Source of the DNA: a virus
Taxonomy: Duplodnaviria > Heunggongvirae > Uroviricota > Caudoviricetes
Length of the DNA: 42,685 nt
IMG/VR virus record: IMGVR_UViG_2563366963_000007
Strand: one strand, 5' to 3'
Shown here: positions 30,517-36,901 of the stretch, in pieces
Layout: each line of letters begins with the position of its first letter
Numbering within the stretch: position 1 is the first letter of the stretch
Notes under the pieces: model-generated
Databases searched by the model: none
What the model was told of the DNA's origin: nothing
What the model saw: the letters and a program-made list of their open reading frames with translations, nothing else
Translations under genes and position numbers: made by a program

Positions 30517-31335
30517 TCAAAATGCTGAATTAGCAACGGATATAGCCGACTTTTTCCCCATTACCATCAATTTATCCAGTGTCATACTTCGCAGATTGTC
30601 GCTGTGGATCACCAGATACCCTGCCCGCTCAGCGATCTCTTTGAAAGCGTCAAAGGTCATCAGATGTTCGCCTTTGGCAACATGGCGCATCCCGGTCACT
30701 TTTCCATTTTTGATAGTGGTGATAAAAGAAAAATCTGGAATGGTTGGGTGATTTTCATCGAGTAGCAGGCAGTGGATGTATTCAATCGCCTCTAACATTT
30801 GCGTCTGTGACAGTTGTTCTATGTGAGAGACGGCGAAGCGTTGATGAATCATGGTGTAGGCATCGGGATACATCATGCCTTTCTTGCCGACCAGTATATT
30901 AACGGCATCACGCAAGGGAGTACGGTCATCGGTAGTTGTACTCCGCCTCTCTGGACGCTGGCTAAAATAACAATCTTCCAGCTTTTCGAAAACTTCCCAG
31001 GCCTGTTCTGTTTCCAGCATTTTGGCATGGCGAGCTGCGCCGCGTTCTGTCCAGAGAATGAGGGATCGGGTATGTTTAGCAACTGACTGACTATCTGTCA
31101 GTCTGTTTTTGAAGTCGCGTAATTCATTACCTTCCAGCTTAAAAAAATGCTTTCCTACGACAAATCTGGCGATGTTGCGCTTGAAGTTTTGCTGGATACC
31201 ATTTACTTCCGTGCCATACAAACTGGCAAGCAATTCAGTAGTGATGACGGGAAGTTGGTTATGATGTAGCGGAGAAAGGGATTCCGCAGATATTTGGACT
31301 GTCATCGCAGTGGCCTCACTTAGTGTTTTTTTCAT
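30517..31335 (-). CDS. putative antirepressor (ORF6N-domain protein)
   Basis: Start reassigned to the ATG at 31335; N-terminal LPVITTELLASLYGTEVNGIQQNFKRNIARFVVGKHFFKLEG matches the ORF6N domain of phage antirepressors as recalled. Confidence 0.5.
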   Translation of the reverse strand: MKKTLSEATAMTVQISAESLSPLHHNQLPVITTELLASLYGTEVNGIQQNFKRNIARFVVGKHFFKLEGNELRDFKNRLTDSQSVAKHTRSLILWTERGAARHAKMLETEQAWEVFEKLEDCYFSQRPERRSTTTDDRTPLRDAVNILVGKKGMMYPDAYTMIHQRFAVSHIEQLSQTQMLEAIEYIHCLLLDENHPTIPDFSFITTIKNGKVTGMRHVAKGEHLMTFDAFKEIAERAGYLVIHSDNLRSMTLDKLMVMGKKSAISVANSAF

Positions 31336-31465
31336 CACCACCAGCGACGCCAATCATCTGGTGGTGAGCTGTGCAGGGTTGGCGTAACCGGCTAAGTGAA
31401 CCCGGCGCTTCCACAGAAGCCCCCACACAGCCCACCATAATGCGAATGTGGCCGTGCCTAACACA

Positions 31466-31486
31466 TAAAAAAACCGCTAACGCGGC
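31466..31486 (-). terminator. short hairpin plus U-run
   Basis: Minus-strand RNA AGCCGC-GUUA-GCGGUU followed by UUUUUAU, between the 31578..31799 gene and the antirepressor gene. Confidence 0.35.
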
Positions 31487-31577
31487 TATGCGTCACTTAG
31501 ATATCCGGGACGCCAATCCCGGCAACCGATTTTGCGGCTGCGCGGAAACTATAGCCCCGGACTTTTTCTAAGTCAAT

Positions 31578-31799
31578 TCAATCAACTTCAAACCTCCGGT
31601 GTTCACATTCCATACACTCAACGGGAACATCATCGCGATGCAAGTCCACATATCCGACCCGCTTATACAACTCAATAATGTCCGGTAACGTGACCAGATG
31701 TTTTTCCGGTTCCAACACCTCAGCCCGGGTTACTTTGTAATCTGAAATATAGAGCACTATCCGCCCGTTCCGTGGTAACTCCAGTTTATCGCCAAACAT
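31578..31799 (-). CDS. hypothetical protein
   Basis: 73-aa ORF with ATG start preceded by GGAGGGAAAGGAC. Confidence 0.35.
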   Translation of the reverse strand: MFGDKLELPRNGRIVLYISDYKVTRAEVLEPEKHLVTLPDIIELYKRVGYVDLHRDDVPVECMECEHRRFEVD

Positions 31800-31986
31800 G
31801 TCCTTTCCCTCCGGGAAACCAATGATATTGACGATATTACACCCACAACGATTCGTTTTACGTCACTCCGCAATCACCATACATCCGTACCAATCCGTAC
31901 ATTCCCACCACAAAAACGATATTTGACAGGCACTGGTAATAGATTTTTAACGCGTGCTATTGCCTTGCGACGTATTTTCAATTCAC

Positions 31987-32211
31987 TCATACAGCCTCCC
32001 TGCTCTCAAACGGACGAATATTGGTTGGTTCTCCACACGGAATAGCCCAACCCAGCCAGGTAAATATTTTCAGGTCACACATCGCGTCATACCGTTCGCC
32101 AGGATTCACATCCACCATGCTGCAGGCAATTTCATATTGTTCACCATTATCAGTCAGTGCGATCTGGTCATTAATAAACCGGGGCACAAATGCAAGAAAA
32201 AGTTCTTTCAT
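31987..32211 (-). CDS. hypothetical protein
   Basis: 74-aa ORF in the early-right operon; overlaps the upstream gene by 4 nt. Confidence 0.35.
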   Translation of the reverse strand: MKELFLAFVPRFINDQIALTDNGEQYEIACSMVDVNPGERYDAMCDLKIFTWLGWAIPCGEPTNIRPFESREAV

Positions 32212-32519
32212 GAAATTCTCCGCTCAAAATAAACAAACTGATTCACCGCTCCGATCGGCATTTCGAGTTTTTCTGCGATATCCTGGCGATTAATACCCGA
32301 CTGATGTAATTCCCTTGCCAGCTCGATATCTTCCTGGAGGTATTTCACTGACTGGTGATAATTACCCCGCAGATACATACAGATTTTCAGCTCGCGCGCT
32401 TTTGTGCGTACCGCTGCACCGGTTCTGCCAATAAGCTGCCCTATACGTTCAACTGTCATGCTGCCCGCACATTGTTTGATGATTACGACTTCCGCACGCA
32501 CCCACCGTTTGTATTTCAT
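32208..32519 (-). CDS. putative DNA-binding protein
   Basis: 103-aa ORF with two helix-turn-helix-like segments (MTVERIGQLIGRTGAAVRTKAREL; GINRQDIAEKLEMPIGAVNQF). Confidence 0.35.
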   Translation of the reverse strand: MKYKRWVRAEVVIIKQCAGSMTVERIGQLIGRTGAAVRTKARELKICMYLRGNYHQSVKYLQEDIELARELHQSGINRQDIAEKLEMPIGAVNQFVYFERRIS

Positions 32520-32752
32520 TGTTCCATCACCCCTCTCCAGTAGTTCAGACGCTCTCTGAAAAATTCCCGGTACGTATCTGGCGTCATTCCGATTTGCTCA
32601 ATCACGCTTCCCCTCGGAATACGTTTCTCAAAGAGTTGGCGGATCAGCGCCGCCGCTCGCATGTCGTAGTGCTCTTTAAGCTGGTATTCCTGGGGCCATT
32701 TGGCGCGGTTGTGTGGTAAGCCGGGCGGCAGGTAATCTGATTGCCCGGCCAT
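32516..32752 (-). CDS. hypothetical protein
   Basis: 78-aa ORF, translationally coupled to its neighbours. Confidence 0.35.
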   Translation of the reverse strand: MAGQSDYLPPGLPHNRAKWPQEYQLKEHYDMRAAALIRQLFEKRIPRGSVIEQIGMTPDTYREFFRERLNYWRGVMEQ

Positions 32753-32753
32753 A

Positions 32754-35584: not shown

Positions 35585-35607
35585 CGGTCTTTCCTCGGTA
35601 TAAGTTA

Positions 35608-35624
35608 AACGCTGGTCAGGCGCT
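35608..35624 (-). repeat. CUGACCA-loop hairpin, copy 2
   Basis: Minus-strand RNA AGCGC-CUGACCA-GCGUU (one G-U pair), starting at the stop codon of the CII-like gene and 9 nt before the next ribosome-binding site. Confidence 0.6.
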
Positions 35625-36100
35625 CATGCATGGTGGTCTTGCGCAGTGCGTATCACTGCTCCTCGCGTCGCTACCAGCGCCGCTATTGCTTCGTCAATTT
35701 CCTGAATAGTTAACTCTGGCGCGAAGTGGAGATGTACAGCGTTAATCGCTTCCACCCCTTCTTTTGCCGCCAGCGTTGCCAGCAAAACGGGATCGCCCGG
35801 CGACTCCAGACGTGCCCGCCGTTCTGCGGGTAGCACGGCTTTCATCACACTGGCCAGCACCTGAGTTTTTCGGCGCGCCGCCGTTGTCTCGCCACGTAAC
35901 CAGCGAAAGATTTTCTGCCGATTGTTGTTGATGGCTCTCCAGTCCACGTTGCCGTCCGCGTCCTCAAATTCATGTAGTCTCAACTCATCATTGCGTCCCT
36001 GACTGAACCAGGCCCGGCAGATTTCAATCGTGACGAGTTCCTGCCCTGCCCTTGCCGCCCAGGTCAAAATCTCTTTTTGTAATTCCTCTTGGTTTTCCAT
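35624..36100 (-). CDS. putative CII-like / early regulatory protein
   Basis: 158-aa ORF in the cII position (just after cro, before replication genes); family not firmly recognised. Confidence 0.35.
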   Translation of the reverse strand: MENQEELQKEILTWAARAGQELVTIEICRAWFSQGRNDELRLHEFEDADGNVDWRAINNNRQKIFRWLRGETTAARRKTQVLASVMKAVLPAERRARLESPGDPVLLATLAAKEGVEAINAVHLHFAPELTIQEIDEAIAALVATRGAVIRTAQDHHA

Positions 36101-36158
36101 AGCGTCTCCTGTCGCTAAAAATTGATTACGCTTAATCAGATTTGGGGCTCACCAACAG

Positions 36159-36389
36159 TTAAGCTGCTTCCGTTTTAGGCAAGCTGTCATCTGGGTTTGG
36201 GTAAAGATCCGGTCTAAGATCATGAGGGGTCACGCGCCATTCAAGAGCTTCAGATGTGCGCAAAACCTCTTCACCGGGAACCCGTCCTTTGAACCAGAGG
36301 CTTACCGTTTGTGGTTTTTTCCCTAATCGCCGCCCTAACTCGGATTGACTCATTACGGAAAGAATTTTGTCTTGCAGTTGTTTATCCAT
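36159..36389 (-). CDS. Cro-like repressor (HTH)
   Basis: Start reassigned to the ATG at 36389 with AAGGAG 5 nt upstream; MDKQLQDKILSVMSQSELGRRLGKKPQTVSLWFKG is a Cro/YdaS-type helix-turn-helix; divergent from the CI gene. Confidence 0.65.
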   Translation of the reverse strand: MDKQLQDKILSVMSQSELGRRLGKKPQTVSLWFKGRVPGEEVLRTSEALEWRVTPHDLRPDLYPNPDDSLPKTEAA

Positions 36390-36410
36390 ATGGACTCCTT
36401 GTGTCCGCGT

Positions 36411-36480
36411 CATCATTACAAACAATAACTGTAATTACAAATTATATTTGCAATGCTCCCTACAATTAAACCTTGTATCC
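36411..36480. promoter_or_regulatory. right operator region with divergent promoters
   Basis: Repeated ATTACAA half-sites: ATTACA-N9-TGTAAT (36415-36435), ATTACAAAT-TAT-ATTTGCAAT (36434-36454), TACAA-N7-TTGTA (36461-36478). Minus-strand TATAAT at 36441-36446 and plus-strand TACAAT at 36461-36466. Confidence 0.55.
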
Positions 36481-36487
36481 TTACGGT

Positions 36488-36901
36488 ATGAACACAAAAA
36501 CGAAAAACATGGCTTTTGCTAGCCGACTACAACGGATTCTAAAAGACTTAGGCTGGTCTCAATCTGAGTTAGCTCGCCATATTGGGGTTACGGCTCAATC
36601 AGTTCAGGCATGGTGTAATGGGGTAACTCCAAGAAAAGATAAATTAGACAAGCTAGCAAAAGTGACCGGATACCCTGTTCATTTTTTCTTCATGAATGAA
36701 GGGGAATATTTGGATGAATCCACACTACACCCGGGTAATTACAATCAAGAACTAACCCCGCAAGAACAGGCTCTACTGCAACTATTCAGAGGACTGCCTG
36801 AGAGCGAAAAAAATAAATTAATCAATGAGCTAAAAGAAAAAAGAGAGCACTTCGATCTACTGCTAAAAGAACTACTTGAAGCCAAAAACCAGACAAAATA
36901 G
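36488..36901 (+). CDS. CI-like repressor (XRE-family HTH, no S24 peptidase domain)
   Basis: N-terminal XRE-type helix-turn-helix (LGWSQSELARHIGVTAQSVQAWCNG); C-terminal 70 aa lack any Ser-Lys autopeptidase motif. Start uncertain (TTG 36473, ATG 36488 or ATG 36509). Confidence 0.7.
   Translation: MNTKTKNMAFASRLQRILKDLGWSQSELARHIGVTAQSVQAWCNGVTPRKDKLDKLAKVTGYPVHFFFMNEGEYLDESTLHPGNYNQELTPQEQALLQLFRGLPESEKNKLINELKEKREHFDLLLKELLEAKNQTK

Follow-up and report, generated by a model that had tools for sequence, protein, structure and literature searches.

The Salmonella prophages Gifsy-1, -2 and -3 are governed by the repressors GfoR and GtgR, which stay uncleaved upon induction and are matched by the LexA-controlled antirepressors GfoA and GftA (Lemire et al. 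2011, PMC3121763). The repressors DicA and RacR were grouped with those of Gifsy by the same authors (PMC3121763), the small protein Rem relieves DicA repression in the Qin prophage (Ragunathan et al. 2023, PMC10448788), and both GtgR and DicA are inactivated by small antirepressors (PMC3121763; PMC10448788). A further layer of control is described for Gifsy-1, where the promoter PisrK drives transcription of anrP, the long isrK-orf45-anrP transcript is untranslated unless IsrK is supplied, the orf45 region yields a processed species of about 80 nucleotides (STnc1160), orf45 is conserved as a nucleotide sequence but not as a peptide, and overproduction of either AnrP or IsrK induces the prophage (Hershko-Shalev et al. 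2016, PMC4825925). In phage P1 the C4 RNA and Icd control expression of the antirepressor Ant. Here we compare these systems with the induction switch encoded in a 42,685-nucleotide stretch of DNA (IMG/VR record IMGVR_UViG_2563366963_000007, Caudoviricetes; the window in what follows), a prophage with a cI-like repressor and an ORF6N-type antirepressor gene. We consider it fairly probable that this prophage uses a switch of the Gifsy/Qin type, in which SOS induction most likely runs from LexA through a small protein of 59 amino acids (ORF59) to the repressor, and to which an RNA-gated ORF6N route is added.

The cI-like repressor of the GtgR/GfoR/DicA type is encoded on the plus strand at 36509..36901, as assigned by its HTH_3 domain and full-length homology, with ATG 36509 (the RefSeq start) or ATG 36488 as the likely start codon and TTG 36473 as the start of the longest open reading frame (ORF), so that its length is 130-142 amino acids depending on the start. 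Within the ORF at 36473..36901 Pfam finds HTH_3 (E 1.9e-12, residues 19-70) and helix-turn-helix (HTH) families only, gives no match to the S24/LexA peptidase family, and the ORF holds no Ala-Gly, Cys-Gly or GG dipeptide anywhere. The AlphaFold model, which is of moderate confidence (mean pLDDT 73), is all-helical: an HTH of five helices and two C-terminal helices are joined by a disordered linker (residues 68-82), with no beta-rich protease fold, and sequence matches in the PDB are to the DNA-binding N-domain of the 434 repressor only. The repressor aligns over its full length with GtgR of Gifsy-2 (33% identity over 129 amino acids, E 5e-23) and with DicA of Qin (31% identity over 131 amino acids, E 1e-15), and the NCBIfam DicA model covers residues 3-129 of 130 with 70 bits, below its curated cutoff of 101. 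Judged by its sequence, cI is a member of the Gifsy/Qin-type short repressors (the GfoR/GtgR/DicA/RacR group), and its inactivation is best read as the work of an antirepressor.

The layout around the repressor is also that of the short Gifsy/Qin-type repressors, with a divergent cro gene and repeated operators between it and cI. The right operator (OR) at 36415..36454 consists of two overlapping palindromes ATTACA-N9-TG(T/C)AAT with 0 and 1 mismatch, and a third copy (37026-37046), at the left operator (OL), overlaps a PL-like promoter TTGACC-17-TAAAGT on the plus strand (37020..37048); no convincing operator match was found in the window outside OR and OL. The cro-like gene (36159..36389, minus strand) encodes an HTH protein of the YdaS family (Pfam YdaS_toxin, E 1.2e-8; RefSeq annotation) and the cII-like gene (35624..36100, minus strand) one of the YdaT family (Pfam YdaT_toxin, E 2e-15; phrog_163, CII-like activator, E 7e-42), types by which this region differs from the Gifsy prophages. 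About 1 kilobase (36902-37911) without an annotated gene separates the cI stop codon from the first early-left ORF; this stretch begins with the PL-like promoter and contains several GC-rich hairpins around 37660-37770, and a sensitive Rfam E-value scan of the leader (36850-37950) gave sub-threshold noise only.

The connection to the SOS response lies outside the immunity region and was overlooked in the original prediction, which dealt with a part of the window that does not contain it. A LexA box, TACTGTATAAATATACAGGT, on the minus strand at 24318..24337 (core 24320-24335) is the only CTGT-N8-ACAG without a mismatch in the window. It overlaps the -10 element TATAAA (24332..24327) of a promoter with a -35 element ATGACA (24355..24350) and a spacer of 17 nucleotides, and the start codon of ORF59 begins 23 nucleotides past the box. 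ORF59 itself (24118..24297, minus strand; phrog_340, E 1.6e-20) is a Rem-like protein and a predicted SOS-controlled antirepressor. Each of the 15 ORF59-group copies for which upstream sequence is available has retained the box, even where ORF59 is 75% identical and the flanks have diverged, and canonical LexA boxes also precede homologs of 36-47% identity in three other lineages (P0022, P0017 and P0015), namely TACTGTATGTTCATACAGT in L020/21, CTACTGTAGATTTGTACAGTA in L041/42 and TACTGTTTATACATACAGTA in L046, so that homologs of four lineages carry the box at the promoter as Gifsy members do; one homolog lineage (P0025; L043-45) has no LexA box. What makes the box convincing is its position, its AT-rich spacer and this conservation, not the 16-mer alone.

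Gene order gives a second line of evidence. ORF59 lies directly upstream of a DUF1367 / NinB-Orf-like gene (23444..24040, minus strand; phrog_319 and annotation), which serves as a synteny anchor: phrog_319 matches both this gene and STM1020 (irsA) of Gifsy-2, and ORF59 thus occupies the slot that gftA holds upstream of irsA, in the nin/Q region and away from immunity. The order here is LexA box, small protein, DUF1367 (irsA) and, further on, DUF1364 and Q, compared with LexA box, dinI, gftA, irsA and then Q in Gifsy-2, and the relative L020 shares the order of box, small protein, DUF1367, DUF1364 and Q. The arrangement is therefore like that of Gifsy, with the antirepressor gene behind a LexA box and immediately ahead of the irsA homolog and Q, but differs in having no dinI in the SOS unit and a small protein that belongs to another PHROG. 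Together with the homology to Rem described below, synteny and conservation are what make the box convincing. Tum of coliphage 186 is likewise encoded outside the immunity region with a LexA box over the -10 element; the CI of 186 is, however, a different kind of repressor, and homology of the ORF59 family to Tum was tried and rejected (hhalign probability 0.6%). Between ORF59 and the DUF1367 gene (24038-24120) there is a hairpin followed by ATTTTCTG; read-through past it into DUF1367, DUF1364 and Q would make Q itself SOS-inducible.

A profile search with the ORF59 family returned 122 representatives, mostly stand-alone proteins of 55-70 amino acids. When a profile of 56 of these family sequences was compared by hhalign with known small antirepressors, it matched residues 34-80 of Rem with a probability of 93% (E 3.5e-7, 47 aligned columns) and, only weakly, residues 29-70 of GftA with a probability of 51% (P 1.6e-4). 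The former match suggests that ORF59 is a homolog of Rem, a small antirepressor with experimentally shown function. The likeness to Qin extends to both partners, the repressor and the protein that may inactivate it, although Rem is a longer protein (83 amino acids), no LexA box is seen in the roughly 155 nucleotides read upstream of rem, and Qin is defective where the prophage here looks complete. The domain model of ORF59 is a confident beta-hairpin plus helix (pLDDT 91), and Foldseek of this model against the PDB gave nothing better than E = 1. Pfam, NCBIfam and PADLOC gave no match for ORF59 or for ORF73 (31578..31799, minus strand), which is likewise Rem-like and stand-alone and has a tail rich in Cys (phrog_340, E 3.5e-21, and alignment). 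ORF73, of 73 codons, closes the early-right operon, ahead of the IsrK promoter, and is unannotated in RefSeq yet called as a gene in public assemblies.

The third copy of this Rem-like domain of about 45 amino acids forms the C-terminus of the ORF6N protein, where phrog_340 matches residues 197-238 (E 4e-12), and the C-terminus of Gifsy-1 AnrP aligns with the domain with 73% probability. Across the family the domain occurs stand-alone, often behind a LexA box, and at the C-terminus of proteins whose N-terminal domain is Rha, Bro-N, P22_AR_N, ORF6N or KilA-N, all of which are typical of proteins annotated as antirepressors. Because it is the C-terminal module of antirepressor-type proteins, the Rem-like domain is a good candidate for their repressor-binding part. 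A broader idea, which we hold only tentatively, is that enterobacterial phages may use it generally as a module for binding repressors, and that this prophage would have placed three copies of it under three inputs, LexA and the SOS response, the C4/IsrK antisense gate, and a repressor-controlled feed-forward from the right promoter (PR), with IsrK acting mainly as a decoy for C4.

The ORF6N antirepressor-type gene is found on the minus strand at 30517..31305 and is an ortholog of Gifsy-1 anrP. Its ORF (30517..31353) matches ORF6N in Pfam (E 1e-21) and anti-repressor families in PHROG (phrog_4792, E 3e-163). The original prediction had placed the gene at 30517..31335; the gene is confirmed and that start is in frame, but ATG 31305 is better supported, as it aligns with the anrP start and carries a GAGG Shine-Dalgarno sequence. 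The protein is divided into the ORF6N domain (residues 1-115), a middle domain (about 120-185) that modular tblastn matches show to be common to P22-like Ant proteins, and the Rem-like C-terminus (about 195-240); a PDB sequence search with it gave no match. Its N-terminus is 66% identical to AnrP over 117 amino acids, and it differs from AnrP in the extra middle domain (262 compared with 187 amino acids).

Ahead of this gene, on the same strand, is an RNA leader of the kind known from Gifsy-1. It starts with a promoter-like site TTGACT-17-TATAGT (31548..31576; 10/12 matches), conserved with Gifsy-1 and equivalent to its isrK promoter, and continues with an a1b1 target motif (31502-31554; Rfam RF03163, 52.9 bits), the small RNA IsrK (31467-31541; RF01394, 80.4 bits), whose terminator is a hairpin plus U-run at 31487..31472, and a C4-type antisense RNA (31357..31442; RF01695, 75.2 bits, E 5e-13, against a gathering score of 45). 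The same trio of a1b1, IsrK and C4 is found by Rfam upstream of Gifsy-1 anrP. The terminator-like hairpin after which the original prediction supposed the gene to be separately transcribed is thus real, but it belongs to this leader as the terminator of IsrK and is no mere separator of transcription units. A 40-codon ORF (31316..31438) that overlaps C4 and has no family match is the counterpart of Gifsy-1 orf45, and it stops 10 nucleotides before ATG 31305, whereas the Gifsy-1 ORF overlaps the start codon.

Each of the two C4 segments left unpaired, UCACUUAG and ACGCCAA, is matched by exact complements (8 and 7 nucleotides) both in IsrK, which carries the two target words at 31516-31510 and 31500-31493, and downstream of C4, at UUGGCGU (31353-31347) and CUAAGUGA (31323-31316), all on the minus strand; the latter overlaps the stop codon of the 40-codon ORF as well as the Shine-Dalgarno sequence (GAGG) that serves ATG 31305. 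In Gifsy-1 the loop reads CGGUGAU and both targets AUCACCG, so that the loop and both its targets co-vary in a three-way manner and a different specificity is implied. A comparable difference underlies the heteroimmunity of P1 and P7. The system resembles the c4-icd-ant (immI) region of P1 and P7 and the CA RNA-ant region of N15 in that the leader of an antirepressor operon gives rise by processing to a C4-family RNA, the targets, of two words each, lie upstream (a1b1) as well as downstream, there covering a ribosome-binding site, and the specificity comes from the loops. It differs from them in having no identified icd homolog, in being carried by an integrated lambdoid prophage, and in where the target lies, over the antirepressor gene's own Shine-Dalgarno sequence or the final stretch of the 40-codon ORF. 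Unlike the Gifsy-1 locus, which follows Q, this one is flanked by the replication/nin genes and by a moron island; it lies upstream of that island, about 7 kilobases before Q in transcription order, and no isrJ match is found by Rfam in the window. From these alignments and complementarities the ORF6N gene would be RNA-gated in the manner of P1 immI and not LexA-controlled, and the gating by the a1b1/IsrK/C4 leader would therefore account for the lack of a LexA box there: none upstream of the antirepressor gene had been found convincing in the original prediction, and a motif search for CTGT-N8-ACAG with no more than 1 mismatch between 24336 and 37401 likewise returned none.

Two further observations concern the leader. 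Just past C4, a word of 10 nucleotides, CUGGUGGUGA (31335-31344), complements the 3' strand of the stem that closes C4. Before processing, this pairing might give the transcript an alternative fold, reminiscent of structures A and B of Gifsy-1. In many Stx1/Stx2 phages, VT2-Sakai for example, the 'Ant' genes encode an ORF6N N-terminal domain of 59-70% identity, and an IsrK/C4 leader of about 75% DNA identity lies upstream of 'Ant' genes in many of them; the same RNA gate probably operates in those phages.

We envisage the following course of events. In the lysogen the short repressor, as a dimer, would occupy the ATTACA-N9-TGTAAT operators at OR and OL, LexA would sit on the ORF59 promoter, and C4 would block ORF6N translation. 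Upon DNA damage the repressor, being without an autopeptidase, would stay uncut, and activated RecA (RecA*) would bring about cleavage of LexA and hence synthesis of ORF59, which would bind the repressor and remove it from the DNA by sequestration. With PR open, ORF73 would be expressed at the end of the early-right operon and would reinforce derepression. In the RNA-gated branch, C4 would be processed from the ORF6N leader and would pair with UUGGCGU and CUAAGUGA, covering the Shine-Dalgarno sequence, and IsrK, with the same two words, would act against C4 as a decoy or as an activator; the ORF6N protein would then be a second, SOS-independent input, probably for anti-immunity on infection, as in Gifsy-1 and P1. 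What the sequences show directly are domain content, homologies, RNA family matches, complementarity with covariation, and a LexA box supported by conservation and synteny; the binding of LexA, the binding of proteins to this repressor and the order of events we infer.

Several points weigh against this scheme. Binding of ORF59 to this particular repressor is a prediction from sequence, and antirepressors can be directed at the repressors of other prophages, as FsoA of Fels-1 is at GtgR of Gifsy-2 (PMC3121763). The match of the ORF59 family to GftA itself reaches a probability of 51%, the two proteins fall into different PHROGs (phrog_340 and phrog_4847), and no dinI homolog is present. An exact CTGT-N8-ACAG arises by chance in 31% of shuffled windows, and the hairpin between ORF59 and DUF1367 may stop the SOS transcript there. 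Lastly, an ImmA peptidase cassette co-occurs with the immunity region in all near-identical prophages that were read, which are of the same prophage family, so that co-occurrence leaves room for a role of ImmA.

It could be argued that this repressor answers mainly or solely to the ORF6N/AnrP-like protein as its antirepressor and that ORF59 serves another SOS function or targets other prophages, in which case induction would chiefly follow relief from C4, brought about by IsrK accumulation in stationary phase, by oxidative or iron stress, or by superinfection. The protein is an AnrP ortholog with a Rem-like C-terminal domain, its gene has a promoter to itself and the RNA gate there is intact, and overproduced AnrP does induce Gifsy-1; nevertheless, SOS-dependent induction of Gifsy runs through a LexA-controlled small antirepressor (PMC3121763), it is ORF59 that has the conserved LexA box here and sits where gftA does, and the Ant proteins of P1 and P22 are dispensable for prophage induction (PMC3121763). 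We therefore regard this as unlikely, though not negligible. Classical RecA-stimulated self-cleavage, in contrast, is very unlikely, since cI has no autopeptidase region, and we give it hardly any credence. The repressor described in the original prediction as having an XRE HTH and no LexA/S24 region is just that, with HTH families alone in Pfam, and its suggestion that self-cleavage is probably not the route is borne out by the lack of an S24 domain and of AG/CG dipeptides, the short length (130-142 amino acids) and the all-helical model, as well as by the homologs GtgR and GfoR remaining uncleaved on induction (PMC3121763); no point in favour of self-cleavage was found.

The remaining explanation has induction driven by an ImmA/CapP-like metallopeptidase that would cut the repressor once DNA is damaged, in the manner of ImmR/ImmA or CapH/CapP. 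The window does encode an ImmA/IrrE peptidase (25966..26454, plus strand; M78, CapP-like; Peptidase_M78, E 8e-18) with an intact HELGH motif and capP as its best PADLOC match (E 2e-25), and the gene is on the same strand as cI, making expression in the lysogen plausible, and is always present in near-identical prophages. The peptidase thus shares with ImmA of ICEBs1 and CapP of CBASS its M78 ImmA/IrrE family and HEXXH motif, but unlike them it is not encoded beside an HTH repressor gene and is paired with a membrane protein. The original prediction had called it nearby; it is some 10 kilobases from cI and about 4 kilobases from the ORF6N gene, outside the region then considered, and is neither adjacent to the repressor nor co-transcribed with it. 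Its neighbours are a protein of 77 amino acids with no HTH family match and an invariant partner of 201 amino acids (26464..27069, plus strand) with a hydrophobic, predicted membrane-spanning C-terminus that reads as two membrane helices; no HTH gene is adjacent. The peptidase and this partner are paired in all relatives (L036-L040), with 77-89% ImmA identity, across differing prophage backgrounds, and three of the five divergent loci have no homolog of this repressor in the flanks that were read. Conversely, the relative L018 keeps ORF59 and the LexA box, with no ImmA homolog in the 10 kilobases read and a remnant of the partner of 28 amino acids. An operator-like site at 25927-25947, 19 nucleotides upstream of immA, has 2 mismatches, is eroded in relatives whose OR is unchanged, and was taken to be a chance occurrence. 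Peptidase cleavage of cI thus appears distinctly improbable, and the peptidase and membrane protein are probably a separate two-gene accessory cassette, in a variable, low-GC island of accessory genes, and not part of the induction switch. The original prediction had treated antirepressor and peptidase as equally possible; the antirepressor stands, and the peptidase, whose constant partner is a membrane protein, is left as a weak rival. Overall, the repressor, ORF6N gene, hairpin and peptidase are all present, as family-level matches with strong E-values that are not due to chance, and the core of that prediction, an antirepressor and no self-cleavage, was sound, while the wiring differs from what it proposed. 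Induction through LexA, ORF59 and the repressor is the reading that we carry forward.

Some observations on the ImmA cassette and its surroundings stand apart from the switch. The cassette looks mobile and may serve defence or exclusion, though PADLOC lists no such system. A long inverted repeat, GTACCAGAAGTGCAGAATTTGCAC...GTGGTAC, upstream of immA (25870-25915) is conserved in relatives and may be the operator for a regulator of the cassette. A query with the cassette (25300-27100) finds a median of two places per E. coli genome, and the cI-cro query one; the second place could be a second prophage copy or a short shared segment. Between the cassette and the ORF6N gene, the variable island at 27100-30400 has a low GC content (0.32-0.35) and holds a protein of 232 amino acids (with a weak PADLOC 'RTasTM' match) and an LprI-family lipoprotein; in the relatives L023, L025 and L027 its content is replaced by a T5orf172/MUG113 gene or a pair with an AAA_15 ATPase.

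The prophage is a lambdoid one of E. coli, situated at the leuZ-cysT-glyW tRNA cluster of ST131-type genomes, where the tRNA-Leu/Cys/Gly cluster and pgsA-uvrC adjoin it. By annotation the gene modules of the window look like a full prophage set, with the integrase, the early-left operon and cI on the plus strand, and the cro, cII, replication and nin-like genes, Q, and the lysis, head and baseplate genes on the minus strand. Many complete E. coli chromosomes carry a prophage that is 100% identical over a stretch of 7.9 kilobases surrounding the region of the original prediction, and the cI-cro segment is present in 449 of 5,426 complete E. coli genomes (about 8%), the carriers listed including strains labelled O25:H4/ST131. 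A megablast of the phage collection with this region gave no match, profiles P0013 and P0014 matched nothing when scanned on viral contigs, a narrow family alignment recovered a single related locus from genome contigs, and protein homolog searches with ORF59, GftA and cI returned close relatives only.

The overall arrangement is an extension of the known Gifsy, Qin and P1-type mechanisms in a new combination and leaves current concepts unchanged; modestly new are the use of one small domain three times under three controls and the tie between an unannotated protein family and Rem. The analysis proposes a testable function for that family and for the C-terminus of many 'antirepressor' proteins, and it connects the IsrK small RNA with the P1-type C4 antisense system. 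If the wiring through a LexA-controlled small antirepressor is as we propose, induction by DNA-damaging antibiotics would be predicted to be reversible, and cross-talk with co-resident prophages that carry DicA/GtgR-type repressors would be possible, in a prophage found in about 8% of complete E. coli genomes, ST131-labelled strains among them.

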